This document shows, piece after piece, positions 1,376 through 49,404 of a stretch of 64,000 nt of DNA; the first letter of the stretch is position 1, and each line of letters begins with the position of its first letter. The translations under genes were made by a program, and so were the position numbers. Source of the stretch: Blasia pusilla (lineage: Eukaryota); assembly GCA_050084515.1 (NCBI GenBank), contig CM114271.1:3596001-3660000 (forward strand). The letters are read 5' to 3'. The notes below the pieces were generated by a model. The model saw only the letters and a list, made by a program, of their open reading frames with translations. It was not told where the DNA came from and did not search any database.

Positions 1376-1420
1376 TGTAGTACCCTTCGAAAGGGCTAGG
1401 TCAAGAGGCCCTTCTGGCTC

Positions 1421-3325: not shown

Positions 3326-4389
3326 CTATTACTAACCTTTGGTTTCGAACACACTTTCGCCCGGTGCCCCGGTTCGCCACAATTGTAGCATATGACCTTT
3401 CCATTCCCTGACTTCGAGTGCTGTCCTCCTCTTGGCTTTGCATGAAGTTCCACTCATTTTGCTGCCGGGGCAGACAACTCTCCTGGATCGTGCTGGCCCC
3501 CACTCCACACTCTTTTGAACGTCTCCTTATTTTTCGACTTCTTCAAAAAACCTTTTGGCTCAAAGGGTTTCTGGGTTTGGACCTCATCGTCCCCAATCCA
3601 CTTCGCTAGCTTCAGAAGATCCGCGCAGGTATCTGGCAAGGTCGACATTCGGTAAAGGGCCTTTTTAGCGCTCGGCTTGAGTCCACTAATGAAGATAGCC
3701 TTCTTCGCGTGCTCATCCATCTTTGGAAGAGAATTCAGTTTTGCACTAAACTCCCTCACATACGCGCTTAAGGAACCAGTCTGCTGCATCCGCACACATT
3801 CCACCGTGTCGCGCAACCCTTAGTACTCCGGAGTGAATAGATCCCCAATCAACACCTTAAACTCCTCCCAACTCAGAGGTGACTCGCCGGCCAACTATTC
3901 CTCTCGTTGAGCTGTCCACCATTGTAGCGCATGATCCTTCAGGAAAGTAACGGCTACCGTCACCTTGTCCTGCTCAGCTGCCCTCTGCGCCTCGAAGTAC
4001 AGTTCCAGTTCCGTAAGGAAATCCTTCACTTTCCGCGAGCGCCCCACCCCAGTGAATGGCGTAGGCAGGTTTATCTTGCAGAGCTTTTTGCCCGCACCCG
4101 GAGTTCGGGTGGCCTCTAACTCTGCAATCCGCTTGCTTTGCTGGGACATCTGCTCCACCAACAGCTTCAACAAGTCCAACATCTGGCTTGACTCGGTCGG
4201 TTATCTTCAGTTTGGGCCCGATGGCCCCGCGGAAGGATTCACCTCTGGAACGTCCTCACGTCTGGCGTTCAGCTCTTCGGGAGTCTCCGTCTCCTCCATA
4301 GCTTCACGGTCCGGCATTGGTTCCTCTCTTGGTTTGCGTCGCTTGATTGGGCGCTTCTTGGGTTGTTCTCCCTCGATTGCCATTTTCAA
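3326..4389 (-). pseudogene. Gypsy gag with CCHC zinc knuckle, fragmented
   Basis: ORFs 3895-4182 (PFTG..FLTELELYF..FLKDHALQWW) and 3454-3816 (QTGSLSAYVREF). The knuckle CYNCGEPGHRAKVC is read at ~3350-3390 on the - strand. Confidence 0.85.
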
Positions 4390-6258: not shown

Positions 6259-6911
6259 CTGTGTGATAGGGTCCGAGCATCGTTCAAGGCTCCGACTCCA
6301 CAGTTGCATCCACTTTCGATCATGGATTTAGGTTATAGATGGAGTTTGGATTTTGCAAGACCTTTACCATTGACCGAGCGCCATAGTCGTTATATGTTGG
6401 TGATGGTCTAGCACTTCTCGAAGTGGATAAAGTTGGTTGCGTTTCCTGATAAAGCGAGTGAGGGAGTAGCGTATGCCTTCCTAGATCAAGTGTTGAGTCA
6501 TTACGATGTACCAAGTCAGGTATTGACACACCAGGGTACGGAGTTTTGTGGGGAGTTTCAGGCCTTGTGTGAGCAGGCGTTGATCGACCACTTCACCAAT
6601 TCGCGAGATCATCTTGAGCCAGATGGACTAGCGGAGAGGGTTGTGCAGATGATGAAGAGAGGTTTATGCAAGTATGGCTTGTAGAGAGGTCATCTTCAGT
6701 TCCCGTGGTTGGCGATGGGATACAGATTCAACAGACAGGCATCCTTAGCGTATTTCTCATCGTACTTGCTGCTTTATGGTCGAGAGCCAGATTTACTTGC
6801 GGCCATTTGTCGAGATGCTGGTGAGGTGTTGAACCTTGATAACCCTCATGTATGGATGCAAGCATGTTCTCACAGGGCTGAGTTGTTTCGGAGAGTGATG
6901 TCCATGGCGTT
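6259..6911 (+). pseudogene. Integrase fragment of a different Gypsy-type element
   Basis: Reads CDRVRASF..LHPLSI..RWSLDFARPLP..HFSKWI..VAYAFLDQVL..VLTHQGTEF..DGLAERVVQ (DDE core) with stops. Interrupted at both ends by LTR-like termini. Confidence 0.85.
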
Positions 6912-9400
6912 TGATCATGGATAGGACATAGGAGCCAGCGGACTGTCTTGAGTGTAACTTTGTCCCGAGGTATCGAATGAGGTTGAGGATAGGTCCGTTG
7001 TGTTAGGAACATCGTTTCTGTCAACTTTCATGTTGAGATCTTTCACAACTTGGTGACTTGTTGAGCAGGTCACCCGCCCCTGATAACCTATGCGCGTAGG
7101 TTACCAAGAGGATAGCTATTTTTAGGGGAAGAACCCTTTGGCTCTTCCCAACCCTATATAAGTGAGGAAGATGGCTTTCCTAAGCCATCTTTCTCATGCT
7201 GGGCCTTTGGAGCACCTCTCTTGTTATGTGTGAGATAGGACCAAGGTGCTAGCGTCTAGATTTCCTAAGAGCACATGGTGGACAAAGCTCAATATGCCAA
7301 TGTAGATTGAGGAGTGGAGATTTAGGCCGGGTGTGCCATTTTCACTACTCTTTATTTTTACATGAGAAAGATGTCAGGGGGCAGGAGGGAATTCATTGTT
7401 TGCAGCTAGGCAAGCGAGTTGCCTCGATGGGGAGTCCTTGGAGACGCTGGTTGGCATTTTTTTGTCTTTTTCTTGTTCGAAAGGCCATGCGCGGAAGCGA
7501 TGTCCATTTTTATCGGATTTCTCTAGTGCCGGTTGACATAGGACAACGATTGGGCATAGCGCAAAGTGGGGCGGCAAGTATATTGACAAGAGTTACAAGA
7601 GAAGGAGAAGAGGAGTGTGAAACCTGACTTGCAGTTGTCAGGGGGCTATCAAGTAAAGGCGGCCAAGCTAGGGCGTAACCGCCTAGGGCTAGGGTTAGGT
7701 TGCAGGTCACGGCGAGCCGAGGCCATGACAGAGGTGGACGGAAGGTGGGATGGGGCGGAGGCGGAAAGAAGGCGGGACAGGGCGGAGGCGCACGAAGTCG
7801 GGGGCAGTGAGCCACGGTCCTTCCCTTCCACGTATCCACCTCCCCCCCCATATTAAAGGAGGGTCGCGTCAGGCGGTCCCCCCTCTCTCTTCCCCCCTAA
7901 GTTTTGGAGGCCCGCATAGGGCTGCGGGCGCCCCCCCTCTCCCCATAGGGACGCAAGCCAAGGGCCCGACCCCTTTTGGGCGCACGTGGTATGCAGGATA
8001 AACATGGTAAGGAGGGCAAACATAGTAGGCAAGGCAGACATGGTGGGTCGGGTGGACGTGGTAGAGGCGTATGTGACGTGATAGACGAGCTGACATGGTT
8101 GCATTTGGATGGGGTTGAGTTGAGGTTGCGAGGCGCGTCTGGGGGTGGGCAGAGAGATTTTCAAGACATGATGTTTCTCGGGCGTGGATGGGATTTGCGA
8201 GGATTCTGATGGAGACATACACGCCGATGCTGATGGGATGTTTGACGTGTTGGTTGAGGAGAGTGTTCTGCTGCGGAGGTTGATGTACCACATGGAGGAG
8301 TGAGTGTGGACAATGCGGTAGGTTGGAGGGCGTGATCAGGTTACCTATTCGATTCCCTTTTCCCGCACTTATCTTTTGTGATTGAGAGTGCTGGATATCG
8401 GGTTGTTGTTGGGGCTAGATGGATGTAGCGATGGTGACGAGTGTAGTCTCCATGCATGTGTGGCATGTCTGTGGATATACAACGATTTCCGAGTAGGGAT
8501 CATGTGTATGATGCGAGAGTGTTAGTGGTTTAGGTGAGATAGTTGGGAGGCTCATGGTGAGCCACAGTGTTGAGTGTACATGAGGCCGGGTGTTTCGTCA
8601 CGGGATTACCATTAGTGTAGGTGAGCTAGTGAGGAGTGTGGGATACTCTTGATGAGTCTGAGTGCTTGAGTGGATGAGACAGGGTTGTCATCACGACGTT
8701 CTTCCCGGGTTTGGAAAAAGGGGTAGTGCGAGCAATAGTAGTGGTGTGCCACGGAGTGGAGTGAGATACCGAGGGGTTACTAATGAGGAGCTACCTCAAC
8801 ATCCATTCGTGGCTGGATCGTCATCACTAGACAGCGGCTCTGTTGACGAGATCGCAGACGGAGGCAGTGTCACTTGGTAGGAGATGGACAACATGGGCCA
8901 TCGGGGCATGCATCGTTTCTCGAGTGCAGTGGGCACCATCGACTGAGATGACTTTATCCAAGAGTTCGACATGTGGTGCGATTTCCAGGAGATACGGACC
9001 TCGACATGGTTCAACCCTTTCATGGCATGGAAGGGGTTGTTCCTGCATTTGGAGGGTCCTGCGATGGATGATTATATGGAGTTTCGATCACTATAGTTAA
9101 TAGATATTGATGCATGGAGGATGTATTGGGCTCTAAGGTATGTGTTCACTAGTGGTCACGAGGCATATGATGGGATCGTGAGAGGAGAGAGACCCACACC
9201 ATAAGCCCGGAGACTAGATGGAGAAGAGGGCACTGAGATAGGCAATGTGGCAAAGACCTCTAGTGGTATAGGGCCACCCAACTTCAGTCCCACAATGGAG
9301 TTCTTCCGAAATTTGGGGAAGAGCTACTAGGGTGTACGCATCGACAAGCTGAAGAGTCTACAAGATTTTCAGCGATGATCGGGTGAGAGTCTGAGAGAGG
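6912..9400 (+). mobile_element. Truncated Gypsy-type element: putative 5' LTR (6912-8338) and gag relic (~8884-9400)
   Basis: Termini TGATCATG...CGTGATCA, TATA-like ctatataa at ~7155. The gag relic MDNMGHRG..DDFIQEFDMWCD..FNPFMAWKGLFLHLEG..EFF is homologous to 15953-16450. Confidence 0.65.
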
Positions 9401-11059
9401 TGTCACAACTTTCTAGGATAGATCAGATAGATCAGAGAGACCTGGTAGAGCGCCTTTGCAAGTAGAGGAGGACACGCTCATGAGGTTGAGGATGACCTGC
9501 TATCGTCCTGGGAAACATGAGAGAGCAGGTTTCCCTTTTGTTTCGGCTCATTTGGAGCCATATATAGAAACTCACTATTTTGGGTAAGTTTCTATGTTTG
9601 GTAGAGTTGATTTTCCACTTTTGGAAGTGGCCTTTGACCCGCTACAATAGGTCAAGAGCCAAGGAGGTGACCTGCGAGCATAGGTTACCGAGGAGAGAGC
9701 TTGGGAGGGGGAAGGGGGTATACCTTAAGGAGAGAGAGCTTGAGAGCTCATTCTCTCTTTGTTGAACCTCTTGGCATGAAGCGGCGGACCTATGGTCTTG
9801 CTTGCCTTGTGTGTATAACCCAAGCCTTTCATTAGGAGAGTGGGTTTGGTTTGACATGAGAGACAGTGCACACCATGGAGAGATTGGTGTGAGATGTTGA
9901 GAGAGATCCATTTGATTTAGAAAGAGAGAATGAGTGAGTGAGAGAGCTTCATGGGGAGCTTGCTGGTCACTTGCTAGTTTTGCAGGTTGGGGATTGTATT
10001 CCCCATGCAGCGGTTCATGGGAGTGCTCATCGGAGCAAGAGCCGCTCACTTTTGATGTTTCCTTTGCCGATTTTTTGTGTGGAAGAGCTGCCCAATTTTT
10101 AATAGGGATTGAGTATGGGGCTAGGTTGCCCCATGCCGGTGTAGCTTTCTGGTTTATTTTTTCATCGGTTTTCGATTTGCGTTGGGAGAAATCAGCGTGG
10201 AAGCGCTGCCAAATTTTGTGTAGGAGAAAGAGACGTTGGGCTCCATGACAGTCCCCGTCACTTTTTGGTGGAAGATCAAATGGATAAATCAACTTGATGA
10301 GGTTTTAGATCAAGAAGATGTGCACGGTGTGGAAGAAATGGTGCACAATTTCAGCATTTTAAAGAGAAGTTACAATAGTTCTTGTGTGGTTGCCATAGCC
10401 ACCATTCCAAGGTGTGAGTGAAATTGCAAAATCCTTGGTGATTTCTTGAGTGGTAGAGAAAAATAAAAAATGATTGTTATCTTAGTGGATAGGACAAGGG
10501 CACATGTCCCTGGAGGTAGAAGTTGAGTGAAAATATATCTTAGGGAGAAGTTGACCCATGTGGTGAGGGATATGTCAGCCAAATCTCATGCTGACCAGGT
10601 CTAGGAGGGTGGACCCCAAGTTACGGGGGGTTATTGGAGTAAAAGGCCAAAACTAGGTAGGGGGAAGTGGACCAAGTTAGGCTAAACACATCCGCCACAG
10701 CCGCCCATGGTGACCGCCGGACCCGAGGAGCCATATTAGCGGTCATTACTGCCGTCTTTGCCGCTTGACTCTCACCGTCGGCCACGCGCATGGTCCACCG
10801 CAGTTCACGACTGCGCAGTATTACCGCGGCCTGACCTTGCAGCCGTTTGTGCCTCCTTCGGCCGTGCCTTCCCCACAGCTGCAACCACCCTTTTTTTTTC
10901 TTTTTCTCTATGTCCTTATTATGTAGCTGTACACGTTCCTCGTTCACGTTTGACCCATGTTTTTCCTCCCTTATCCCACTCTATTCCCATCTATTTTTTC
11001 CATCTATTCTTTTTCCATATCACTAGTACCTCCATACTATCTCTACATTATTTTGGGAA

Positions 11060-14000
11060 GGGGTTGGGCCATACTTCATAGGTGAAGATGGTAGATGAGA
11101 GTTCATACTAGGGAGAGCATTTCCGTGGATGGGGAGAGAGTCGATTACCATTAGGGCTAGTTCGAATGGGGGTTGTGGGGCGGATTTTGGTGGGGTATGT
11201 CTCTCGAGTTTGACAGAGGGGATCATGTTCTCTTCTTGGTGAGAGATGTCCATGCCTCGACCCGCATCGGCCCCTCGCGTAGGGGCTTGTGGGTTGTCTA
11301 GCCGGGATACGAAATGCTTTTGTCCTGAATTCTTCACTTGTTCAGGAATTCGGAACCATTTAGCGGCTAAACATCCTAACTTTGATAGATTCGGATGGGT
11401 GGTTCCTCCAGTTGATCATGGATGCTCACCGGTGCTTCATGCATCATCGCCCCTTCTCGAGGCATGGGAGTGGTTGAGGTCCCACCTTGGCAGCATCACA
11501 AGTCTGTTTGAGACTCGTTTTCCTTGCCCGAGGTTGTTTCATAGGATCCCCCATGCTATTCGGGATGAGCTTCGCCAGTATTTCCTCCTTCCCTTATCTA
11601 GGATTGCACTTGATCCTATGGATGAGCTCTCGTGGTATCTACTACTTCTCCTTCCATGATGGTGTCTTCGCTATACCTCAGGAGGGAAGGCTGGCCATAG
11701 AGAGGTTGTGGCCCGATTGCGGCGATTCCGAGGAGGTGATTAGGAGTCTCTTTAGAGCGAGTTCGTGGCATATGCCAGAGGTAGCACTCCACGTGGTTTC
11801 CCAGTAGACGATCTTGTAGCTGTCAGATTGCGACGATGTAGGAGACTTGGGCGAGCCGAGAAGTACTCGCGAGCGGCTCGTGCGCTCCGCCCTATGGATA
11901 TGGCTCCTCCTTCCGATGTTACCATCGACGCCCTCTAGAGCCTACACCCTCGTCCAGTGGTTGACATCCCAACATTTGTACGTGACTTCCATCCTGACAC
12001 CACCTTATGCCGAGACCCGTCCCTCTTTGCACGGGCACTCGGGCGTTCCCCTAGGATAGCACCTGGAGGGTTGTCCGATATGATGTACGAACACCTTCGT
12101 GATTGCTTTCCCTCCGAGGACTCTGCTTGCGACTTTTCCGAGTTGCTTCAGGTTGCCTCTCACCTAGCTCATGGGAGACTGCCAACAGCAGTAGCCTAGG
12201 TATTGGGGGCGGGGCAACTTTTGGCGTTATCGAAGGAGGGTGGAGGGATCTGTCCGATTGCCATAGGGGAGGTGCTCTTGCGGTTGGTGAGTCGCACTAT
12301 CAATTTTTGCAGTTCCGTGAGGCTTTCCAATCACATCTGAGTCCGCACCAGTTCGGAGTTGCCACGCTAGCCGTTTGTGAGGTTGTAGCCTTAGGTTTGA
12401 GGGCTTGTTTAGATATACATCCCGAGTGGGTGGTTCTCCAAGTTAATGTGGAGAACGCCTTTAACTCAGTGTCTCGGGCAGCTATCTTCACAGAGCTGAG
12501 AGATGTAGGGGGTCCCATAGGGGGCCTGATTCCCTTCGTGCATGCTTTTTATGGGGCCCCCTCAGCTCTCTATTTTCACCACGGTAGGTTCGAGGAGGAG
12601 GTCACGGTCTTGGAGTCTGCTACCGAGACGCGTCAAGGTGATCCCTTGGGTGGTGCATTGTTTGCTTTGGCTCATTATGGAGCGGTTCTTTCTACGGTGG
12701 AGGCTTTCCTGGGTTGCATTTTCCCTTTGTTGGCAGATGATACGCACATTGTCGGCCCTGGAGACTTGGTTGTTCCTGCATTTCAGAACTTTTCAGCACA
12801 GTTGGCACACGTCGGCCTCGCGGTGAAGATGGGAAAGTGCAAGGCTTGGTCTTCATTAGAATTGTCAGTGGATATTCATTTACCCGACGGTTTTTTGACA
12901 CGTGCTGGAGGGCTTCGCGTCTTGGGAGTCCCACTCGGGAGCGAGGACTTTGTATCGAGTTTTGTGGCGGTGGCTCTTACCGAGGATCTTCTTCATGTCG
13001 ACGATCTCACGAGGATTGGTGACCCTCAAGTAGCTTATGGAATCCTCTGGTCATGTTTTGCCCGTAGACCTGGTTATATGTGTAGAACCGTGTGGGCGAC
13101 TAGCCATATTTCTTCCTTGTATAGATCCTTTGATAGAAAGATTATGCAGGGGTTTGGGGATCTTCTAGGACCTAGCTCATTAGAGTGCCCCGCGGGGGAG
13201 TTAGCTTGTAGACAGGCTTCTTGGCCGATTGCCTTTGGTGGAGTAGGTCTCATAGCGACTGAGCTAGTGGCGTCTTCAGCCTTTTTAGGGAGTTGGGCCA
13301 CTATAGCATCCCTCCTTTGCTCCCGATTTTTTATTAGGGATAGACCGCTACTTTTACACTATGTTTCCCAGGTTGAGGATGGTCTTTTCCCGCTTCAGTC
13401 TTCACTCACAGCTTGTAGAGACTCCCTTCTTGTTGAGGCTAGAGCACTTCTTCCCGCTTTCTCTTCCCTAGTTACCTCCGGACAGTCTGGGCTCCAATCT
13501 TCTTTGATGGAAGCCCACTTTGATGCATTATTTAGAGCTACTATGTCGGACGGGAATATCCCCATGGAGGTTCGGGCCCGTATTCGCTCTTGCTCCGGAA
13601 AGGGGGCATGCCCATGGGTGGGGGCTCGTCCCCTCATCCCGACTTTCCGCATCGCACCACTTACCTACACTATAGCGATGAGGTTCCAACTGGGCCTGCC
13701 CCAACCAACGGTGGTTGGTTCGACACATTGCGAGTGTCGCCGGAGTTTGGATCCACTTGGTGTGCATTTGGCACGGTGTCCAGTTGGGGGTGAGAGGATA
13801 GCCACTCACGATGCAGTGCGGGATATTATGTTCTCTATTGCTCGAGAGAGTGGATTCCATGTACAAAGAGAGAGGGACTACTCCATGCAGGATTCCCTTA
13901 TCCGTGCTGATCTCTACATGACGAGGGAGTCTGAGGTGGTGGTAGCGGATGTTGTAGTGACGGATCCTACGCGGGAGGCAGTGCGAGCCCAAGTGGTAGC

Positions 14001-14490
14001 ACAAGGGAGATTGCTACAAGGAGCGGCGGCGGTCAAGAAGACCCACATTTATAGTCGACTTCATGACGGACATCAATTTATCCCCCTAGCCATTGAGATG
14101 TATGGGGCGATGGGGGAGAGGTTTGACTCGTTCCTTACGGATTGCGCCCATCATCTCCAGTCGAGAAATGGGTTGTCCTTAGCCACTGCGATACTTTATT
14201 GTAGGCAACGGGTCTCCATAGCTTTGCAGCGCGCCCAGGAAAATGGGCTTCTGCGGCGGGCTCGGGCGGTTGGAGACACCAATGCTAGAGGCCCACTTAG
14301 CAGTAGCCATAGTTCTCTAGGTGTTGCTGATATTGTCTCTGTTGTTGGTGATTTTGGTCGCTAGGGCGGAAGGCCCCCTTCTTTCTCCTCGCGGCCGGTT
14401 GGGGCCTCTTGAGGTCTATTTTTTGGGTCTCCATGCCCCCTCTTTTGTATCGTGATGGGTTTCCCATCCTTTTTCTACATATACATATAT
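11060..14490 (+). mobile_element. CRE-like (RLE-type) non-LTR retrotransposon, near full length, degenerate
   Basis: N-terminal C2H2-like finger (KCFCPEFF..RNHLAAKH, ORF 11246); RT motifs QVNVENAFNSVSR, TRQGDPLG, LADDTHIVG, GLRVLGVPLG; C-terminal CEC..H..C knuckle, [29 protein letters not shown] (restriction-like endonuclease). Boundaries are approximate. Confidence 0.85.
12103..14364 (+). pseudogene. RT plus restriction-like endonuclease ORF of the CRE-like element (open from ~12300 to the stop)
   Basis: 753-aa ORF carrying RT and RLE motifs. The upstream part (11246-12300) is broken by stops and frameshifts. Confidence 0.85.
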
Positions 14491-15952
14491 TTTATTTTAT
14501 TTTCCTGACATCGTCGCCACAATCTTTGGAACCACTGCGGTTGCCTTCCGGACGTTGCTGCTACGAGATTACCTCCATCCGTGCCGGTTGTGTTGCCACC
14601 TACTGGGAAGTTGCGTTTGCAGCTAGGTCGAACGCACGTGTTGCAGCCTGCAACTAGGGACCCAAGAGCCACAACGGCCATGCCCATTTTTTTGGCCCGG
14701 ATTCATCCCTTCTCCCGTCTGTTGAACCAATTTCGTCCGTGGCTATTTCCGTCTGTTTTTTCGTCCATCCAGCCGCCTGTGCCGTCCGTTCAGTTTCGGT
14801 CCGTCCTCCGTCCGTTGCCGTTAGCTGCCACCCAATCCCGTCATTTAATTAAAGGTTATGATTAGCGACGGTCGACTCACCGAATTTACGTGCCGCCACA
14901 TACTCTGTTTTGGCCACCGTCTTTACACTGCAGTAGCTTGTCACCGATCGACTGTGAGTACTATCTTGGAGGGGATGTGACCTATTGATTTATGGGGTCA
15001 TGGGATTTATCTTGCTTTGCTATTTCTTGAGGTGGTACCCATTTGATGGCGATCGAGTACCGTGTCGTGACGCCCGTAACCGTAACGCGCCGCCGATTGC
15101 CGCGCCGTGTTGCTCGTGGCCGCACCGCACCATCTCGATCGCGGAGCTGCACCATCATTGTGGAGCAGAGCGTGTGTTGCTGTTGAGGGGGTATGCCAAA
15201 GGATTCCCCACCCTATTTTTGAGTGCCGTTTGTAGTCGTTCCGTGCTGCCAATGCCGTACCGTACCGCTGAACCCACATCGCGCATCGAGGAGATTTGAG
15301 CATCGTCAGTTCCACAGGAGTACGACTTGCTGCTTGGAGGGGTTGTCTTCATGCCCAAGTTGGGGTCAAGGTTCTTCAACTACTGAGGTGCGACATCGAA
15401 ATTAGTTCAGGTTACCCATTATGGTCCTTTGCCCTGTTGTGTTAGGGATTTCCGCATATTGGGTAGTTATTTGGGATATTGGGTTTTGTGCTAATGCTTA
15501 GAGCATCGATGATGTATGGGTTTAGGGGACATAGACCTGTGTGGGATATCTAGAGTTGAGGGTGTGTCATGTTGATGAGATGATAGGACAGTAGACGATT
15601 TGCCGTACCACCCCGCTTATTGCCGCACAACACACGTCTTAGTGAGAGAATGTAGCTTGAGTGCCGCATGTTAGATTGAGTGATTGCATGATTACTCGCG
15701 AGGTTGAGAGTGATCGTGTGAGAGGGGCATGAGGGTCATCATAGCGTCCTTTCAGGTTTTTGAGAGGCGAGATGGTGGACCTGAGAGTAGCTCTAGAGGG
15801 TTTACCCAGAGTGGTGCGAGGTTTCTAGAGTCTCCACGCGAGAGACCACCTCGATCTTCTTCTTTGTCGTCTTCAGACAAGGGGAAGAGTATAGAGGAGT
15901 GTGCTAGTGATCCATCTCACACATTGAGTGGTCCTTCTAATTGGGCGTACAA

Positions 15953-16870
15953 GATGGACGACCGGGATAGAGGACCGCGTAGGCTTTTGGATGCTATAGG
16001 CACTATAGAGTTACACGACTTCATTCCGGAGTTTAGAAGTTGGTGTGACTCACAACGGGCTAGGAACTCCAGAAAGTTCAACCCGTTTACAACATGGAAC
16101 GGAATGTTCCATCATTTAGAGGGGCACCCATGGACGATTATCATGAGCTCTCGCAGAGATATGCCCATGAGATTGCGTGGAGATTTTACTATGACCCAGA
16201 CTATATGACATGGACTGAGCCATTTCTAGATGAGGAGGAGGAGTCAGAAGAGGTTTCCTCCACTAGTGATGTTGTGGGAGGGGTGACTCACACTGGAGCA
16301 ATTGCATCGTCGAGTCAAGTGTGTCCCAAGTTCAACCCCGTGGTTGAGTTCTTTGCTAAGTTGAGGGCGAGCTACCAAGGGCTACAGACGGAGAAGTTGC
16401 GGAGTATCCACAACTTCTAGAGGCGCCTGGGTGAGAGTTTGCATGAGGCCTACACCCGCTTGGGTTGGTTGATTAACATCACTTAGGGAGTGACAGAGGC
16501 TCATGCTATCTAGTCATGGTACGCGATGCTGGACTAGACCCTGGGGACACGAGTGAGGGAGGGGGTGCTTCATATGAATACCTCGCCTACGTTGAGAGAT
16601 GTTTTTAGGACCGCCAAGAAAATTGAGCGCAACATGGTGGAGGAGACCGTAGCCACCATGGATTCTGGGCGAGAGCAGTCACGAGTGCCTGCACCACCAG
16701 TGCAACAACGTGGATTCCAAGATAGCTCTGTGGCACCATGAGTTCAGGGAGGATACCGGGAGGCCGTGCCACAGAGACCTGTGCCTTCATATGCGGCTCA
16801 TCAACATCCACCTACGATTACTTGTTGGTCATGTGATGGAGCCCATCATCAACGCGATTACACTTGTCAA
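15953..16870 (+). pseudogene. gag-like ORF relic with degenerate zinc knuckle
   Basis: MDDRDRGPRR..HDFIPEFRSWCD..FNPF..HLEGAPMDDY..FNPVVEFF..GESLHEAY; knuckle CWSCDGAHHQRDY at ~16820-16860. Confidence 0.7.
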
Positions 16871-16884
16871 GGTCATGGTCGCGT

Positions 16885-17445
16885 GCCTTAGCATGCTCAA
16901 CAACACTGCATCTAAGTTCTTTTCGCGGCACAGGGACAAAAGTGCTAGGAGGCTGCGTTGTAATGGATGGTTTGACTTTGAATGCAAGCAAGAAAGGGCA
17001 ATATCAGTTGATAAATCTTTGGATATCCAAAGTCGGCTTATTATGACGAGCCTTTACAAAGACTTGGTGAAATCTAAGAAAAGAACTTTCTTGCGGCGAA
17101 AGCAAGAGTCCTTGAAAAGGGAGCTGCATCAGGACCCCAAATCATTTTGGAGACGGTTAGTAGTACAGTCTTCAAAACCTACTCTTGATCCCAAATCTTT
17201 GATATCTTTTTCCGGAAAGCTCTATTTCTTCCCCGACGCTACATCTATGCCCCGTTGTGAAGGAATAGTTGGCTTATTCTCTGGAGCAGAGGTGATGACT
17301 CAACTAAGAAAATTAGCAAATGGTAAATGTGAGGATTTGGATAGTCTTTCTATTGAACTTTTCAAGTGGGGAGGAGATTGTATTGGACCGATCCTCACAA
17401 AACTATTTGGTGATGCTGCTATCTATGGTTTTCCTTCAACAAGAG
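16885..17445 (+). pseudogene. LINE ORF2 fragment (region just N-terminal to RT)
   Basis: DPKSFWRRL..FSGAEVMTQLRKLANGKCEDLDSLSIELFKWGG..LTKLF..GFPST matches the linker and start of RT in APE-type LINEs. Confidence 0.7.
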
Positions 17446-17521
17446 CGCGTAAGTGGAAGAAGCCAGGGTGGACATCGGGTGGTAGAGAGAGCATGGCAGG
17501 CACGGGCACGAAGATTGGACA

Positions 17522-18073
17522 GTGTTTTGGGAGATGTTGCGAGTAGTGGAACACTTGCAGGAGAGTCAGACATGTTCTCCGGTGTATATTTTGGAGAATG
17601 TGTCATTGTTGGGGGACACTCATGCACGTGTGATGACGAGTATGCATCAGGTCAGGTCTTGGTTAGGACCTGTTGTGTTGTTTGATACAGCGAGAGGTGG
17701 ATCATGCGCCCATCATCCAGGACTGTGGTGGACAAACCTAATATCATCAGAGGTATTGAGTGGAGCATACGATGGAGTTTAGAGATCACCACATCTCACA
17801 GTGAATACTATTCTGGGCTCAGGGCGTCGATCTCAGGTGGTGATGCGGGATGCTAGACCACCGTTGGCGATAGCCAATAGGGTGGGGGAGTTTAGGGCAG
17901 CCTTACTTATGTTGGTGAGCTTCCCAGCATCCCATGCCTTTTGTCACTGAGGGACAAGCATGATTTGGGATGAGGTGACCTGAGCATTGGAGGAGCCTAT
18001 GGGAGATGAGCGCGAACGCGCCATGGGGTTCGCTACGAGTACTACGTGTGGGAGAGGTGTTTGCAAATCATAA
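17522..18073 (+). pseudogene. C5-cytosine DNA methyltransferase fragment (C-terminal half), retroelement-associated
   Basis: One frame read through 3 stops: FWEMLRVV..VYILENV (motif VI, 17594)..FDTARGGSCAHHPGLWWTNL (motif VIII-like, 17708)..EEPMGDERERAMGFATSTT (motif IX-like, 18008). Motifs I and IV are not present. Confidence 0.75.
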
Positions 18074-18165
18074 AGGCTTTCTCCTTCATGGCAAGGGAGT
18101 GAAGGGACTAATCATGACACACAATATCATTCTTGCTGCCAAGTTGCATTTCGATCCTTCTTTCC

Positions 18166-18375
18166 TTTTCATTCCTACTGACTCTCTAGTGAGCGCCTAC
18201 ACGAGGAGCACTTCGATTCTCTGTCTCTTTCATGCATTTCTTTTCATTCCTACTGACTCTTCAGTGAGCGCCTAAACGAGAAGCAATTCGATTCTCTGTC
18301 TCTCTCGTGCGCTTCTTTTCATTCCTACTGTCTCTCCAGTGAGCGCCCAAACGAGGAGCAATTCGATCCTCTCTT
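18166..18375 (+). repeat. Tandem repeat, 75-bp unit, ~3 copies
   Basis: ATTCCTACTG recurs at 18171, 18246 and 18321, and the whole unit is conserved. Confidence 0.9.

Positions 18376-18427: not shown

Positions 18428-18430
<3 letters not shown>

Positions 18431-18476
<46 letters not shown>
18431..18476. repeat. (TC)23 microsatellite
   Basis: Direct reading. Confidence 0.97.
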
Positions 18477-18478
<2 letters not shown>

Positions 18479-18479
<1 letters not shown>

Positions 18480-19450
18480 GCATCTGAAGTGTGGGGCCCC
18501 AGCTCCAAGGCTTGGCCCCAGGGCCTTGAGGCCCCCCAGAAACTCTTCATGCGTCAGAGTCTGGGCATTAGGAAAACCACTCCCCACGATATTCTATTGG
18601 CTGAGTTTGGGGAGGTACCAATGGAGATCCATGCTGTTAAGAATATGATCACATTTCTCCAACACCTTGAGGATATCTGTGAGGATGATCCCAATCGTCT
18701 ATCCGCCAGGGCCTACGTGGTTTCAAAAAGTAGTGCCACCCTTGGGGCTAAAAATTTGTACTATGACTGCACGGAGTGGCTCATGAAACGGGGAATATCC
18801 ATCGGTGACCTGCCTACGGCCACCCACCAGGACCTTGCTGAACAATTACACAACAATTACATTGCCATCAATCGGGGCCGACACGGCGCCTGGGAAAGCG
18901 GGGGAATTCCTCTCACAAAAATGGTGAAAGAATAAGGCGCTACCACACCCTCATGAACAACTGCAGATCCATGCAGCAAGCCTCCTACATCTCTGCCCCC
19001 ATTCCCACTAAGTTACGTCATACATTAGCGAGATTCACATGTGGCTCTACTGACCTAGAGATTGAGAAAGGAAAATTCTCACAGAAGAAAAGAGAGGACA
19101 GATTATGTAGATTTTGCAACTCGGGGCTTGTTGATGATGAACATCACTACCTCTTCGACTGTACCTTTCACGATCACATTAGGCTTGACTTCCCGGATCT
19201 CTTTGTTCACCGAGCTCCCAGGGTCCTCCCATTCATGATTAGGCAGACTCAGATTCAGATTCAGACTCAGAATCAGATTGCTAAATTCTTGCATAGTCGT
19301 GTGAAGACCAGGGACATTCACCTGGCTATGAGGACCCCTTAGGCCCTCGCTGGTGCTTGCTCTCTCTCCAAATTTGTTGTTAAGTGTCAAAACTAAGTCC
19401 CATGGCCCTGTGGGGTCCCGTGGAGAATAAATCTATTCATTCATTCATTC
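18479..19450 (+). mobile_element. 5'-truncated LINE (post-RT domain, CCHC finger, 3' UTR, (ATTC)4 tail)
   Basis: EVWG..LFMRQSLGIRKTTPHDILLAEFG; LARFTCGSTDLEIEKGKF..RLCRFCNSGLVDDEHHYLFDC (RTEX/L2-like C-terminus). Ends AATAAA-tct-(ATTC)4 and is flanked by TCTCTCTCTCTA on both sides. Confidence 0.8.
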
Positions 19451-19772: not shown

Positions 19773-22700
19773 ATGGGTTCACTGGGATTGGATTCCGACG
19801 GCGTGGTTGCTGCTACTGCTGCGCTTGAAGGAGAGAAGAGATGCGAGGAAGAACCGATTCTGTACGTGAATGGAAAGCGCCGAATTCTGCCCAAAGATCT
19901 CGCCCACCTTACTCTCCTGGAGTACCTTCGAGGTGCGTACAAATCACGACTCACGAGTCCCATCTCGCGTCTCGGAGCTCGATTTCGCCTCCTCTTCATC
20001 CCCCCCAGTGTCACACCGGAGAGAAGGAGGTGACGGATCCGCCCAATTCAACTCCGACAGCTGTAGAGCAGCTTCAGAATTGAGCGCTGCGCTCAAATTG
20101 TGCCTGTCTCTGCATAAAACCTGGCAGTGATGGATCCAAGAGCTCAGTCTCGTGCTCTCTTAGTTTTGGCGGCTGCACAGGCCATAGGCTGTCCGCGTCT
20201 CTGTCTGCATGCTCCGCTTGTCTGCCAGACCTTCGAATTCTGCGGAGAGGATAGCGAGTTGTGGCCACTCTGAACAAGGCAAACTTGGGCATCTGAGGAG
20301 AGTTTCCTCAAGTTGGTTGACTCTTAGACATGGAATCGCTTCGAAAACAATACCGAAGGTGTTGAGAGCGTAATTCTCGTATGAGAATTGAATAGAGCGA
20401 AATGTAAGGAGCTTTGGAACTGGAGTCTTATGGTAGGCATCGAGTGTCTTCACGAAAATCATTGAAACCACAAGGATCCAGGAAAAATCCATCAGAAGGA
20501 AGTTTTCCCATCTTCTAGGTACAAGCTTGCCTGCGGATCTTGTTTGGGATTACAGATTCTTGTCTAGCATGCCATCTGAATGCTCCACAGCCATTCTCCC
20601 ATTTTGCCTGTGAGTCTCTGTAGTCCAATTCCAGCGCTTTCGAGTGGTGGTTGAAAGAAGAGAGCAGCTGATCTCCAAACCCTCTGCAGATTATTTCACT
20701 AGATTGGGATTTCACTGCCAGACACAGCTCTGAGCTGAACAGGATGCCGAGTCCGAGTGTAACATGGAAGGGGGTAGAGCTTGGCCCACCTCATCGCACA
20801 TCGCTGATGATTACAGCGACTCTGAAAACTCATCTGGAAGAAAGCCCCCTCATCTGTTTTTGTTTGGGCATCCCTTAACCATATCTGGTTAGTTTGATAC
20901 TCATTGTGAGTGTCACCAGAACTGGATTCCCTTGGTGTGCATGCAATACACTCTAGATGGGGGTGATAGGATTGCCACTCACGATGCTGTGTGTGTGCGG
21001 TGGTCCATGTCGTAGTTGCAGATCTTGTGTGAGAGTGGCCACGAGTGTTGGCACGAAGGAGATTGTGACAAGGAGGGGCGGCAAAGAGGAAGAACCAACT
21101 TTATAATTGTCTTGATGAAGGATGTCGATTTGTCCCGCTAGCCATAGAGATGTATGGGACTATGGGGAAGAGATTTGACACTTTCCTCACCATGGCTCAA
21201 GCAAGGTCAATCCAAATACTCCAAGTGTGCTCAAGGATCGACACAAGAGTCAAAAGTCGAAATAGAGCTCTACCGTCATGGCCATGCAAGTAAACTTGGA
21301 ATGGGTTTCATCGAGCAGAAGGTAGAAGTATCCTAGCATCCTCCGAGACAGATGGAATCCATGTAATGCTTCAATCTCAAATCACCCTTAGCTCTGGAAT
21401 ACATGGAAAATGTAGAGGGAAGAACCCAAAAGTGGGGTTTCAGTTTTGACCTCCCAGGGTTAATATGTGTGATGACTTGCGAGCACTGACTGAGAACAGA
21501 GAGGACGTCATCCACTGACCTCGATTACATAGAGCCGTCATCCACTAATTCGGCTTTCATGAAGATGGGTCTTCAAATATCGACACTTCTTCATAGATGT
21601 ATTGACACAGTCTTGTCTAGTAAGCATATCCGTGTGTTCAGTTCTTCCTACATTGTGTGTTGTATCTATCTTGCATCGATTTTATTCAAGTGTGTTCGCT
21701 CACTTAGAACTACCACTCTGTCGTGCTTCCTGCACCGAACCTTCTTCTTGATACCTACGTCTACATTCATCCTGCCACTGAAGTGTCTGTCTTTGCCTGT
21801 GATCGGATTCCTGGAGAATTCCCCAATCCTCTCGAAAAGAATTATTCGTTTTTGGGCTTCTAGGAAAGCTCTGGCTTCTACGTGTGCTCCTGCATAGGTG
21901 GAGTCTAAGTCAACCTTGCTGAGTGGTCTCTGCGCAGAAAAGGGTCTCACAGGAACGAAACTGGGATGTGGAGAGGGAGGATGTGGAGCTTGCACTGTCA
22001 TGGTCTCTCACTTCGACCTAACTGAACAGGCTGTCGTGTAGGGCTTCAGATCACATCCTTTGAATTTTACATCTATGCATAATTTCTAGAGATTTCAATT
22101 TATATGCGTGGGAGCTCTTTTCCCGTCTTGATACTGCCAGTTCCAGGAATTGCACTGGGGCCTTTACCAGTCTTGTATTGAATTGAACATGTCCTTTCGT
22201 TTGCAGTACCTTGTAATCTACGGTCTGGTTTTCCTGCTGCACAAAAAGTGCAGCAGGAAAACCAGACCGTAGATTACAAGGTACGACAGTGTTAAGTAAA
22301 ATCAGTTCTTGAATGCTCAGTTGGGTAGTATGAATGGTAGTACTGGACTATGAACATGGAATGTGACTGGCGATTGTTTCCACTCTTCACCACCCTGGTG
22401 ATGGGTGGTCTTGTGGAAGACTTCATGCCCGTTAGACAGACCTCATGGTCTCAAGGGAAGCTTCTGTCTTCCATTAAACGAGTGTCCAGAAGGGGGGATA
22501 GCGGTGCTGTAGAACTCATTGGCAGGCTTCATTTAATGATAACATAAGTGTACATGCTGCTGATTCGAGTGTCTACCCTTTTACATTCACCAGTATTTGG
22601 TGCACTCAAATGATATTTGGGCCACTTTGATCTCCATCTCTCTAAGCGAAGCCGTTGAAGCAATCATGAAGGTCCATAAGATTTTTCTTTGTGATCTCAT

Positions 22701-25700
22701 TTCATTTCTTACCGGTGTTTTTGGCTTGCGTATCTCATTTGATGCAGTCACAGGGCAGTCAACGCTTGTTTGGCGCCTTTGTACTCTGTGGAGGGTATGC
22801 ATGTGGTGACGGTTGAAGGTATTGGAAGTCGTCGAAAAGGTTTACATCCGGTGCAGGTATGACTGGAAAAATGCACTTACTGTCAGCACGAATGCTCCCA
22901 GTTATCCCATATCCTACTTGACGGGTATTTTCGTATGTAGTGGTAGTGCACTCGTGCTTTAGTTTAGTTTCATTTGACTCCTGCTATTGGTCGACAACGA
23001 GTGAATTGAATATATTTGGGCTGCAGTGGATTCACTGTCCTCTGCAGCTTCCACTCTCAATTGTCCCACTCTATGCTGTCCTCTTCTTCGTGTGCGGATC
23101 TTTTGGCTGTTGTGAATCCAGTTTGCGAATTCAAGCGATCCACTCCAGAATCAGTTCCATAGTTGTCCCGATGTGAGCAACAATGAAACGGAATGGATTT
23201 TGTGTGTAAGTGATCCAGATGTACTTTCGAAGTGATCGGTGAGTGAGAGAAAGAGTACAACGTTTCAGAATGAGATAGACTTGGAACAGACAAAGTGCCA
23301 AATGATCTGTAGAAGGCTCCCTTAAATTTCGTGGTCATCTCCCTTTCATACACCTCTTGTTAACCGCTTTGTGCTTTGAGAGCGTGTATCCGTGTATGAA
23401 CCTGTTAGACCTCTTGTTTGATCCTGCCTGCATGCTGAACTTGATTCCAGGACGCTCTGGCTACCTCTCATGGTTCGCAATGCGGGTTTTGTACACCAGG
23501 ATTCGTGATGTCAATGTACTCCCTCTTACGGGCTTCTAAAGGTGCTCCAACAGAGGATCAAATAGAAGAGGCTCTTGCAGGGAATCTGTGCCGGTGCACT
23601 GGATATCGTCCAATTCTGGACGCATTCCGTAGGTTTGCAAAGACTGACCCTTCTCCATACACTGAGGAAGCTATCAAAGCAAGCAGTGGACAGGCGTTAG
23701 ACAGTGCGGTGGTGGAGGTTGGGACCACAGTATGCCCTTCCACAGGAAAGCCTTGTAACTGTGGAAAAGTCTCAACAGTGGATGCTCAGAATAACGGCTC
23801 AAAGCAAGAGGTGAAGAGTAGCACAGGAGAGCCGATATTTCCACCTGAATTGCATACTAGAAAAACCCTTCCTTTGTATCTAAGAGGGCAAAAGGGGTTG
23901 AATTGGTTTCGCCCCACTACATTAGGTGATCTCTTGGACTTGAAAATGAAGTATCCAGATGCGAAGTTGGTGAACGGGAATACAGAAGTCGGAATAGAAA
24001 TTCGCTTCAAGAATCTCGAGTATCCGGTGCTCATTGCAACAACTCACATACCTGAGCTTAATGTAATAAAGTCCTCGGATGAGGGTCTAGATATAGGTGC
24101 TTCAGTTACTCTTACAAATCTCATGGAAGTTCTCAAAAAGAGTTCTAATGAACGGAAGGTTCATGAAACTTCAGTCTGCACAGCTTTCACAGATCAGCTG
24201 AAATGGTTTGCAGGAAGTCAGATACGAAATGTTGCCTCTGTGGGAGGAAACATTTGCACTGCAAGTCCAATCTCAGATTTGAATCCTCTGTGGATAGCTT
24301 CTGGAGCAACTTTCACTGTTCTCGGTCACGGCAGGGTGTCAAGGACGGTGAAAGCTGCTGACTTCTTCACTGGTTATCGCAAGGTGGACTTGAAAAGAGG
24401 AGAAATTCTTGCATCTGTTTTCCTCCCTTGGACTAAACAATACGAGTACGTAAAGGAGTTCAAGCAAGCCCACCGTCGAGATGATGATATTGCACTCGTG
24501 AATGCTGCTATGCGCGTGTCTCTAGCGAAAAATGAAGGAAGCTGGACTGTCCTGGAGGCATCCCTTGTCTACGGTGGAGTAGGTCCAACTTGTGTGATAG
24601 CAACAAAGACGGAGACGTATCTGCAGGGAAAGCCATGGACGCAGGAAACTGTAGAGAATGCCCTCTCTTACCTTCCAGAGGACATCAAAATAGGAGACAA
24701 TGCCCCTGGTGGTATGGTTGAGTTTCGGAGGTCATTGGTCACCAGCTTCTTTTTCAAGTTTTCTCTATATGTGATGTACAATCTTGAGCGTGAAGCAGAT
24801 TTTTGTCATGACCTGCCAGATAGTTACAGATCAGCGGTTGCACCGTATCATCGAGAGATGCCCCATGGGTTACAGATGTACGAGACCCAAATGTCCGACA
24901 CCAGTGTTGGCCAACCATTGATGCACATGTCTGCTCAGCTCCAGGTAAGTGACCTGCTGAAGATGATCAATTTGTAACACGTTGTAGTAGTATGTTTATA
25001 GCCTTCACTCGGTATACTCTGTTGGGTTTCTCTATTCTTACTGATTCTCCGTTCATAGCTTTCACCTTCTGTGAATGCAAGCACTGTAGATTGGACAGTT
25101 CTCAGGACCTGATATCTTGTTCTTTTGACTGGTGAAGTTTCTGTGTGATTTTTAGTGATTCTCCACCCATAACAGCCCGTTGAAACCGGGCTGTAGATGA
25201 TACCACTCTATTTGATGAATGGCAGTGCTTCATCTAATTTCTCGGAAATCCATAACAGGTGACAGGGGAGGCAGAATATGTAGATGACGTTCCATCCCTT
25301 ACAAATACTCTCCATGCTGCTCTGGTGCTTAGCACAAGGCCTCATGCTCAGATTTTGTCTGTGGTCTCGAAAGCAGCAGAATCACAACCTGGTTTTGAGG
25401 GGTTCTTTTCAGCCAAGGATGTCCCCGGAGGAAACGATGTTGGAGCAGCTATACATGACGAAGAGCTTCTCGCAACCAAATTTGTAACTTGTGTAGGACA
25501 GGTAAGAATCTATCTACACTTGTTTTAGACTCCGTACAGGTGATTGCCTCGTGGTTACATGGGGTGCCACTAATGAACCTCTACTTTTTCTCGCTTTTGA
25601 TCCCAAAATTACTCCAATTGTCTCCTGCTGTTACAAGGGAAACTTCCTGAAGAAGTCTGGTTCGAATTGGCGCCTATGAAGTGAGATCAGCATTGCTAAA

Positions 25701-28700
25701 ATGTGGGATAACCTGAAAATGAGAAAACATAAACGCAGGAAGGGAAGACTCAGCGGAAATGCAATCGTTAGTCCATGAACAGAATCAATTCCGGTGTCTG
25801 TCTATGGCTTAAAAGGCGATTCTGAGTGCCTCCCAGTTCCATCCCTTCTGGCATGTAATTTATTTCCTCACATTGGAAGGCTTTGACGAACGACCTCATA
25901 ATATATTCTTGTCTCGGGGGCAGGTGATCGGAGTTGTCGTAGCTGACACGCATCAAAATGCAAAAGCAGCAGCACAGAAGATTGTCGTCGAGTACAAGGA
26001 CTTGCCTGCAATTTTGACCATCGATGATGCTGTTGCAGCACAGAGCTTTCATGAAATCTTTCCAGCACGTAGGGAACCAGCAAAGCGGGTGCTACAAACT
26101 GGAAACGTGGATGACTGTTTTGCTAGTGGGGAGTGTGAACATGTCATAGAAGGTGTGGTGCAGATGGGTGGTCAGGAGCACTTTTACTTGGAACCCAACT
26201 CCTCTTTAGTCTGGACAGGGGATGGTAGCAATGAAGTGTTCATGATTTCATCCACACAGGTAAGTCTAGGCCTCGTTGAGGGCTTTTCACGAAGAACGTT
26301 GATACTGTATGCATGTTTAGGGTATTTCTAGTGCAGGCATTTGGTGAAAGCCAGCTAGGAATTTGAAGCGCACCAGGTGGGAATTGCGTTATCATAGTCT
26401 GTGCATGGGTACTTTTCCAGGAATTACTGAACAGTGTTTTGTATAGAATTGAGCGATTCTATTGATTGATGAACAGTCCAATGTGATGATTTTGAGAAAA
26501 GAGATATGTCTGTAGCAGGTCATGAAATTGATCAGCTTCCACAAGAATCCTAGAGGTCTGTCGCAGTTTGACCAAATTCGTTGATTTACATCTGGCTTTG
26601 GGGCAGATTCTTAGAACATTCAGAAGCCCATTTTAATTGCAGACCCATAAGTACGTCATCAATATTACGTGCAGGCACCTCAAAAGAGCCAGGCAGTTGT
26701 TTCCCATGTGCTCAACATTCCGATGAGCAAAATTGTGTGTAGAACAAAGCGAATTGGTGGTGGATTTGGTGGAAAAGAAACAAGATCAGCATTCATCTGT
26801 GCTTTGGCAGCTTTGCCAGCCTACATTTTGCAGAAGCCAGTTAAGATCACCTTGGACAGAGAGGTGGATATGGCCGTGACTGGGCAAAGGCACGCTTTTC
26901 TCGGAAAATACAAGGTATCTCCAAATAAACATCGCTTGTATGTCCTTGTTGTTGAAATTTGTTAATATCTAGTTTAGTCATGCCCTAAAAGTAGTTAGTC
27001 AGATACTAACTTAGTTGGATACTAATTTAATTAGCTAGAGATAACTTAGTGTTCCTCTATCTTTTTAGGGTAACCTTGAATTAGGGCAATTCTCGAGTTA
27101 GGGCTAGCCACCATCTGTTATCTGTTCAAGAAGATCTAAGGGCCAGAAGTGCTCACCCTCATGTATATAATGTTACTCAAATATCAAATAGAAGCTAATT
27201 CTACAGCATGCACAGTTTTGGTGAGGACTCCGGAGGTTCTTGGTCCTGCTGCAAAGCGATCAGAGAGTAGGAAGAGGAGATTGAGACTAATTGTTGTGCT
27301 TGCTAGAGCCTCACTGGAAGGCAGATTGTTTTGTCTAATATGCTGATGGAGATTGTTTATGCTCAATGAGGTGAGCCATGTCTGATTTCTGAGCTGGTGA
27401 CATGTGAGGATCTGTAGTGTGAGTGCAAGGTGTAACTGTGTAGAATCCTTCTTAGTATCTCTTAAATAATAATAAGAGTCACATCATGGTAGGGCTCTGA
27501 TTTGGCAAAAGAGATAGAAACTGATTTGCTGATTGTGTACAAGCTGAAATCATGGATGGTCTAGCTGATGCTAGCTCTGACTTTGTACAAGGAGATACTT
27601 CTGCTGGTCAATCATTTTCTCACTTGTTGGGTCACCTCCCTCCCTTCAAAAGGAAGAGAACTCATATTCAATTCCTCCCTGCCTTGCTGTTTCTTGTGTA
27701 CTGAAAGAATTCCAATGCCATGAGAGTTTCTGTCCGGCGGTTTATCCCAATCATAATAATCCAATACATAATTGGCAACTTCAAGATTGAGAAAGAGGTC
27801 TGATGAGCTTTCTCTTTATTTTCATCAGGTGGGATTCTCCAAAGAAGGGAAGGTACTTGCAGTGGACCTAGACCTTTACAACAACGGTGGTAACTCATTG
27901 GACTTGTCACATGCAATTCTTGAGAGGTCTATGTTCCACTCAGATAATGTATATGACATACCACACATGCGAGTTCGTGGCAAGGTTTGCCGCACTAATC
28001 AGCCCAGTCATACAGCATTCCGAGGATTCGGTGGCCCACAAGGAATGCTCATTGCAGAGAACTGGATAGAACACATTGCTCGCACTCTCAGACGGTCTCC
28101 TGAAGAAATAAGGGTAGAGTGCCTACGCTGGATCAGATGTGTATCACTACCAACATTACGTTCTTGTTTCAGAGATCATGATTATCGGATAGAGTCATTC
28201 TTGGTTTCATTTATCTCTTATCCGCATGGAACGTTAAAAGTAGTCAAGAGTAATGAGTAATTTTCTTTTATATCCATCTTTGAGTTTGGACTTCAGGTAA
28301 GACTGGAGGTCTTGTAAGAGCATTAGAAGTGAATACATACCCTCCTCCAAGATAGTTGTGCACCCTTTTGGCCCTCATAGGTATTATGTTCTACTAATGC
28401 ACAATGACGAAGACGTACAAACTTTGTGATAACAGGAGCTTAACTTTCATAAAGAAGGGCACATTTTACACTATGGACAACCAGTACTTCGGTGCAACGT
28501 GCAAAAGGTGTGGGAGGAACTGAACAGATCTTGTGAGTTTGAAAAAAGGCGAAAGGAAGTGGATGAATTTAATGCGTGCCATCGATGGAAGAAGAGAGGG
28601 GTGGCTATGGTCCCCACCAAATTTGGCATCTCCTTTACAACTAAATTCTTCAATCAGGTGAACTCTTTCAGGGGGTTTATGATAATGAAGATGTGAAAAG

Positions 28701-38511: not shown

Positions 38512-38824
38512 TATTGAAGGTTGAGTTACAATCAACCTCATGAGACACCTGAACTGCTACATTTGGTACTCACACGAAGTAGGGAAGCTTAATCTTGGTT
38601 AGTCAGTTAAGCGTGATTATCTTAACTAGGGTTAATAATCACACTTAGCCTAACTCGAGACTATGGTTAAGATTAGGGTTAGGGTTGCTTGTACATACCC
38701 TATATAATTGAGAAGGGGGCCAACCTCCACGCATTCTCTCATTGCAAATTTTGTTCTCCATGGTGGTGTGTGAGTGTGAGATCCGTTTCCCACTAGTTAT
38801 GCTTCTTTAGAAGTTTTTTCCACA
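38512..38824 (+). repeat. 5' LTR of Copia copy 1
   Basis: TATTGAAG...TTCCACA; about 94% identical to the 3' LTR by eye. Confidence 0.92.
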
Positions 38825-49401: not shown

Positions 49402-49404
49402 GCG

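Follow-up and report, generated by a model that had tools for sequence, protein, structure and literature searches.

DNA methylation is the main weapon of the host against transposons, and a transposon endowed with a de novo methyltransferase of its own is therefore a paradox. The question is raised by a locus of Blasia pusilla, in which traces of a cytosine-5 (C5) DNA methyltransferase (DNMT) are found among pieces of retrotransposons. Is the methyltransferase part of a transposon, and of which type? The DNA analysed is a stretch of 64,000 nt (assembly GCA_050084515.1, CM114271.1:3,596,001-3,660,000, forward strand), here called the window. The interval 17453-18076 is, with high confidence, what is left of a DNMT3-like catalytic domain, dead and truncated, from a bryophyte retrotransposon family of the Ty3/Gypsy type. 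Its features are listed below; motif numbers (I, IV, VI, VIII, IX and X) follow the usual naming of C5 methyltransferase motifs.

17453-18076 (+): DNMT3-like methyltransferase fragment, truncated and riddled with stops (translation, tblastn, alignment, homology search)
17594-17602 (+): ENV of motif VI, kept (translation; column invariant in the family, which reads ILENV)
17708-17740 (+): motif VIII remnant AHHPGLWWTNL (translation and alignment)
18008-18031 (+): ERERAMGF, equivalent of motif IX (aligns to EMERVFGF of DNMT3A)

Once stops are read through, the fragment (frame of 17447-18073) spans about 200 codons, along which FWEMLRV, YILENV, AHHPGLWWTNL and ERERAMGF follow each other in this order. 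The original prediction had singled out this motif run, together with the in-frame stops at 17780 (TAG), 17948 (TGA) and 17981 (TGA). All are confirmed, and a fourth stop is found at 17483 (TAG). Motifs I and IV had been thought to be missing: motif I is absent, but motif IV leaves a remnant, IGW*, beside stop 17483, where relatives read AGWPCQG in the alignment. Motifs VI and IX are intact. In motif VIII both arginines of the family sequence AHRxRLWWTNL are gone, and homology ceases about 45 bp past ERERAMGF, short of motif X. With four stops, no motif X and no motif VIII arginines, the copy is dead, as had been claimed, truncated and devoid of a function of its own. Directly 3' of the fragment, the interval 18165-18372 is made up of 2.8 tandem copies of a 75-bp unit (89% matches), and a (TC)23 run is found at 18431-18477.

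The read-through translation had been expected to match the PF00145 profile. This was not borne out, as no Pfam match was obtained for the fragment at E <= 10, and phmmer similarly found no match to PDB sequences. The failure in both comparisons is due to the shortness and decay of the fragment, and not to a spurious likeness; the identity of the fragment as a methylase therefore comes from full-length relatives. A query of 196 aa, with stops masked, was compared to a database of 5.8 billion proteins. Among 523 candidates, 16 proteins match the fragment at E <= 0.01. In the best match (E 4.9e-57), 98% of the query is aligned at 54% identity, and the best relatives are 54-56% identical over 93-98%. 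The sources of these proteins are Marchantia polymorpha, Calypogeia fissa, Sphagnum and metagenomes. The family is hence not unique to the B. pusilla genome, and its relatives in Marchantia, Calypogeia and Sphagnum are annotated, but uncommented. The matching Marchantia proteins are 1,160-1,330 aa long. By tblastn, 17522-18076 corresponds to residues 993-1177 of one of the relatives (P0005), with 56% identity. PF00145 is found above the Pfam gathering cut-off in 10 of 13 scanned relatives, and again in 10 of 13 of a second set. Single relatives bear also Retrotrans_gag, aspartic protease or integrase core domains (Pfam). Gag is present in the alignment of 11 of the 16 proteins; the five lacking it (P0002, P0007, P0010, P0012, P0015) are shorter pieces, which align to the protease and/or DNMT part of the same proteins. 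No host DNMT3 or DRM protein is found among the 16.

When the DNMT region of a Marchantia protein was used as query, 79 matches were retrieved. Those at 46% identity or more, from Marchantia, Calypogeia, Sphagnum and metagenomes, share the order protease, DNMT, reverse transcriptase (RT). A profile search of 1.84 billion representatives yielded 412 clusters at E <= 1e-30, many of which are long polyproteins. The best 150 matches of this search are all of the transposable element type (E < 1e-56), and no host DNMT3 is found among these 150.

The abundance of the fragment was monitored in DNA runs of one organism. Thousands of contigs are at least 80% alike on the fragment region. In run X1, the DNMT piece is covered to a summed depth of 950-2,600 and the unique interval 18171-18321 to one of 3.5; summed depth is not to be read as a copy number. 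These data show that the DNMT piece is highly repeated in the DNA of the organism. The T of the stop at position 17948 is a G in each of the 20 contigs of run X1, which encode glycine there; the stop is therefore private to the window copy. No RNA run is among those listed as sharing the sampled words, and the DNA runs contain a small part of these words only. One contig from a run guessed to be RNA matches 17629-18013 at about 85% identity, and is not evidence of expression.

Other pieces of the same family are interspersed in the window:

15017-16000 (+): non-coding 5' region upstream of gag (self-blastn; repeated at 57173-57754 and 58780-59168, with 75% and 85% identity)
15969-16912 (+): gag fragment, same family, residues 9-330 (tblastn, E 2e-61 to P0003 and P0005)
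16913-17449 (+): foreign spacer, 537 bp (gap in the collinear tblastn match)
57173-59168 (+): second copy of the gag 5' region (self-blastn; cut at 59169 by a Copia element)
8902-9417 (+): diverged family gag fragment, residues 9-163 (tblastn)
6286-6918 (+): family integrase fragment, residues 1958-2173 of the polyprotein of metagenome locus L007 (tblastn, 61-68% identity, E 7e-73; rve match)

Four coding pieces of the family, all on the (+) strand, are thus mapped by tblastn in the window: integrase, gag, gag and DNMT. The gag located upstream of the DNMT piece had been predicted to be co-oriented with it and to belong to the same family, and it does match the same Marchantia proteins. Its final part is the first CCHC knuckle, and its read-through translation includes one frameshift (near 16115-16130) and several stops. 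The distance from the gag end to the DNMT piece is 540-610 bp. The two are similarly diverged from Marchantia by tblastn (40-59% identity for gag, 56% for DNMT). Between gag and DNMT some 670 residues (approximately 2 kb) are lacking, from the second knuckle through the protease to DNMT motifs I-IV. The view that the spacer in between is a LINE fragment finds no confirmation. The interval 16913-17449 has no Pfam match, and is at most LINE-like. A sub-threshold zf-RVT match (Pfam, E 0.009) is found on the other side of the DNMT piece, at 18429-19339; neither interval has relatives in the window or in the metagenome loci. Foreign, possibly LINE-derived DNA thus flanks the fragment on both sides. 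The gap separating the flanking pieces has approximately the size of an RT domain, and a template-switch chimera is conceivable, but unproven. The gag at 8902-9417 is 72% identical to the one at 16 kb over 80 bp only. No direct repeats were found in 1-30000 with a seed of 14. The gag and DNMT pieces likely decayed in place from one insertion, a point that does not lend itself to proof.

The organization of whole elements is apparent in relatives. The search pattern was matched 205 times in metagenome contigs; 110 of the matches were confirmed as relatives, and 80 loci were kept. In the polyprotein, gag, two CCHC knuckles, protease and a DNMT3-like domain are followed by an in-frame stop, and then by RT, RNase H, integrase and a PHD finger. 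The relatives feature the order of Ty3/Gypsy elements, namely gag with CCHC, protease, RT, RNase H and DDE integrase. In single protein models, DNMT is followed by RT and RNase H (P0017, P0019), and also by integrase (P0037). In one frame of locus L001, PF00145 spans residues 961-1031, RT 1404-1562 and rve 1974-2062. The L007 polyprotein includes also the PHD finger, at residues 2278-2322. Three gene models have a DNMT region that runs on into the start of a Gypsy-type RT. The claim of a Gypsy-type LTR retrotransposon family with a C5 methyltransferase of its own, in a land plant, is thus upheld, as domains from gag to integrase and PF00145 occur together in single relatives.

Of 62 matches that span the junction of DNMT and RT, 59 have a single in-frame stop there (41 TAG and 18 TAA; for example L001:13847-13849), and CAACCC follows the stop in 52 of the 62 copies. 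Marchantia and Calypogeia proteins terminate exactly at this position. The Marchantia fusions extending past the stop are gene models, several possibly spliced across it. The stop being located between DNMT and RT, the enzyme is placed in the Gag-Pro frame, and RT and integrase would need read-through. The conserved TAG/TAA and the adjoining CAACCC suggest, at the sequence level, that pol is expressed by stop read-through. The CAR-YYA read-through motif is known from plant viruses. It fits exactly 2 of the 62 copies, and is a lead rather than support.

Terminal repeats were sought in 22 loci with long flanks. Direct repeats of about 340 bp, 86-94% identical and approximately 8.75 kb apart, surround the coding region in five of these (L001, L007, L019, L032, L069). 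Intact metagenome elements measure about 9.2 kb (L007:8508-17718, L069:8369-17693, L019:1765-10974). The three share sequence only from the start of repeat A1 to about 115 bp past repeat A2. This tail (B2) repeats B1, the 115-bp segment located just before A2, and the resulting layout is A1, internal region, B1, A2, B2. The methyltransferase had been expected to be in frame with RT and integrase between paired LTRs. The frame is as expected in metagenome copies, with the conserved in-frame stop in between, but the element ends are split repeats of the A1...B1-A2-B2 type, not plain LTRs. No clear target-site duplication is found at L007, L069 and L019. Split repeats of this sort are DIRS-like, and they are found here in an element with a DDE integrase.

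The type of methyltransferase was assessed on the family. Motifs are in normal order (I DLFGGIST, IV GWPCQG, VI ILENV, VIII SRAHRxRLWWTNL, IX ERERAMGF, X RRQVLGQAMD), motif X is DNMT3-like, and the family alignment is not permuted as in DRM. The family profile matches 32 distinct PDB sequences, 29 of which are DNMT3A/B/C (best E 9.7e-11). The other three matches are far behind, and correspond to two chains named DNA methyltransferase (4onj, 4onq) and to one DNMT2 (E 1.4e-3). An AlphaFold model of an intact family domain (pLDDT 92.3, pTM 0.91) has DNMT3A/B/C as its top Foldseek matches, all at E 1e-19 and with TM 0.80-0.84 by target length. The DNMT3-type resemblance noticed originally in the fragment is therefore borne out by PDB profile and Foldseek matches; assignment of the domain to the DNMT3 type is supported by profile and modelled fold, as judged on the family and not on the fragment alone.

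Among 34 diverse family sequences, no variation is found at the catalytic Cys-Gln pair (C105, Q106), at the glutamate of ENV (E148) and at the motif VIII arginine (R188). The dN/dS ratio is 0.15-0.18 between distant copies, values that are rough as dS is saturated (1.7-2.4), and 0.97 between two close copies. [quoted passage not shown] A stop-free DNMT is found in 3 of the 80 loci only, most copies being decayed. Whatever its role, the DNMT domain of intact copies is predicted to be an active C5 methyltransferase, and this prediction is probably correct.

DNMT-bearing retrotransposons are reported, in the main text of de Mendoza et al. 2018 (PMC5890265), in Symbiodinium and Klebsormidium only, and Marchantia is absent from that text. 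The passages concerned in Sarre et al. 2025 (PMC12344493) and in a 2026 preprint (10.64898/2026.05.21.726589) say 'streptophytes', citing de Mendoza et al. 2018. The same preprint, which deals with 'EpiLTRs', describes a DNMT4-like domain at the pol 3' end in Cymbomonas, a further arrangement. In the main texts of the literature searched, no explicit report of such elements was found for land plants (liverwort, bryophyte, Sphagnum, Marchantia gene names); supplements may list sequences.

The closest described system is KnitGypsy-Dnmt3 of the charophyte Klebsormidium nitens, a freshwater alga, to which the legend of Fig. 4c in PMC5890265 assigns DIRS-like repeats and Gypsy-type domains. Judged against that paper's main text and legends, both families have an intronless, non-rearranged DNMT of the Dnmt3 type within a Gypsy-type coding region, key catalytic residues are kept in both, and dN/dS is low (below 0.2 there, 0.15-0.18 here). 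The A...B-A-B repeats are also shared, as far as the wording of the figure legend tells. The hosts differ, being here land plants (liverworts and Sphagnum) and not an alga. No Klebsormidium protein is found among the named matches of the fragment search and of the search with the Marchantia DNMT region. By comparison with the published description, the bryophyte family and KnitGypsy-Dnmt3 probably belong to one lineage, and we infer common descent. The likeness to the Symbiodinium elements SymbioDIRS-Dnmt3 and SymbioLINE-Dnmt lies in the carriage of a DNMT by a retrotransposon. In the main text of PMC5890265, SymbioDIRS-Dnmt3 features a Dnmt3-like domain, A-coding-B-A-B repeats and de novo CG methylation in yeast. 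The Symbiodinium elements described there rely on a tyrosine recombinase or are LINEs, whereas the bryophyte family has a DDE integrase, a protease and a CCHC gag.

Animal DNMT3A/3B/3C share with the family collinear motifs from I to X, including AHRxR-WxNL and the ExER-xGF...RQxLLG tail, but identity is about 21% only. In contrast to animal DNMT3, the family protein lacks PWWP and ADD, and the sole reader-like module is the PHD finger at the end of the integrase. A different layout is found in Gypsy elements of green algae (Hariotina, Haematococcus, Monoraphidium) and of metagenomes, with P0038, P0050, P0058 and P0067 among their polyproteins, which are organized as RT, RNase H, DNMT, integrase, PHD. 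The DNMT is hence located between RNase H and integrase in these, and between protease and RT in the bryophyte family. Bryophyte and green-algal elements are 35-42% identical in DNMT, 42-46% in RT-RNase H and 32-41% in integrase, and have the C-terminal PHD in common. The RT-RNase H similarity between the two types (42-46%) compares with 28% to a chromovirus of the window. These values would fit one DNMT capture followed by relocation of the module. In the literature searched, no description of the algal and metagenomic layout was found. The land-plant Gypsy carrying a DNMT3 is a further member of a published type. New details are the Gag-Pro placement with the conserved stop, the PHD on the integrase and the permuted algal relatives.

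An intact element starts with the 340-bp repeat A and a leader of about 1.15 kb, followed by a first frame encoding gag, two CCHC knuckles, aspartic protease and methyltransferase. RT, RNase H, integrase and PHD finger are encoded in the same frame after the conserved stop, ahead of the terminal B-A-B. The methyltransferase would be made at Gag-level amounts, and RT and integrase would be made only by read-through of the stop. The protease of the element would release the methyltransferase, which would methylate cytosines of the cDNA of the element or of the new insertion. The same has been put forward for the elements of Klebsormidium and Symbiodinium. We regard this putative role as tentative and rather doubtful. 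In the window copy, the approximately 2 kb between gag and motif IV would have been replaced by foreign DNA, and the 3' end is cut before motif X.

Alternative readings of the locus differ widely in probability. Lack of a direct Pfam or PDB match and the presence of several stops in the frame might point to a chance resemblance, but this is refuted by a match at E 4.9e-57 over 98% of the query among 5.8 billion proteins, and by the collinearity with the family; its probability is negligible. Hardly better is the case for a relic, or a processed pseudogene, of a host DNMT3 or DRM gene lying amid transposons, which we judge very improbable. Bryophytes do own host DNMT3 genes (as stated also in the main text of PMC5890265), and the fragment is intronless and lies in a region rich in transposable elements. 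Yet all the 16 relatives form one protein family, 11 of them have gag and none is a host DNMT3 or DRM. Moreover, solved DNMT3s are only about 21% identical to the family, the motifs lack the permutation of DRM, and the piece is highly repeated in DNA runs of the organism. An origin of gag and DNMT from two insertions, or of the DNMT by LINE-like template switching, in a locus that never hosted one intact element, is unlikely, but carries more weight. The DNMT piece has foreign DNA at both sides (16913-17449, and 18429-19339 with its zf-RVT match at E 0.009), and at least two other family fragments are found in the window. Against it, the gag piece (residues 9-330) and the DNMT piece (residues 993-1177) are correctly ordered and oriented, 0.6 kb apart and similarly diverged, and the searches with the flanking pieces identified them neither as parts of a single LINE nor as LINE DNA at all. 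Assignment to the family is the same in either case.

The family DNMT might be a pseudo-enzyme, or have a role other than DNA methylation in the particle, be it structural, nucleic-acid-binding or RNA-methylating. KnitGypsy-Dnmt3 gave no methylation in yeast, a result that the authors, in the main text of PMC5890265, call inconclusive as human DNMT3B failed too. The domain is located in the Gag-Pro frame, the usual place of nucleic-acid chaperone functions. The invariance of the catalytic cysteine, the ENV glutamate and the motif VIII arginine in 34 of 34 sequences would be needless for a pure scaffold, and fold and profile are closest to the DNA-methylating DNMT3s, with DNMT2 far behind (E 1.4e-3). 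A pseudo-enzyme or non-DNA role is, in our view, distinctly improbable.

A broader picture can be drawn, in which we see a real possibility, though we lean somewhat against it. Gypsy elements with a DNMT3 may form an old, species-rich clade of the green lineage, which survived the move to land and is abundant in bryophytes, with probably hundreds of copies here and near-intact ones in Marchantia. In the land-plant branch, the DNMT would have been moved to the Gag-Pro frame, before a leaky stop ensuring capsid-like amounts, and a PHD histone reader would have been placed on the integrase; reader and writer together may mark the insertions of the element. If this holds, what a transposon gains from a DNMT is directly testable, Marchantia being genetically tractable. 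Known so far from dinoflagellates and from a single charophyte alga, the phenomenon is extended to liverworts, including Marchantia, and to peat mosses, hosts in which it becomes open to genetics and methylome profiling. For annotators, some bryophyte genes labelled 'DNA (cytosine-5)-methyltransferase' are transposon genes.

The window hosts additional transposons and two host genes. A Ty3/Gypsy chromovirus at 797-4255 (-) features gag, RT, RNase H, integrase and chromodomain, with an open stretch of 634 aa, and is no relative of the DNMT family, from which it differs widely in RT-integrase (28% identical). Two Copia elements (+), 89% alike, are found at 38512-43725 and 59169-64000. The first has LTRs of 314 bp (38512-38824 and 43412-43725, 94% identity), and its 38512-38966 portion is similar to 59169-59627; the second sits, at 59169, inside a 5' region of the DNMT family. 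A 753-aa open frame at 12103-14361 (+) includes a reverse transcriptase domain of the non-LTR type, and related 3' pieces are found at 20865-21190. Intron-bearing host genes encode a xanthine dehydrogenase (21898-30429, +), whose closest homologs are from liverworts and which marks the window as DNA of a liverwort-like land plant, and a member of the triose-phosphate-transporter family (49249-51713, +). Identity of the xanthine dehydrogenase is highest with the Marchantia protein (68%), ahead of those of Calypogeia (67%), Riccia (65-66%) and a moss (60%).
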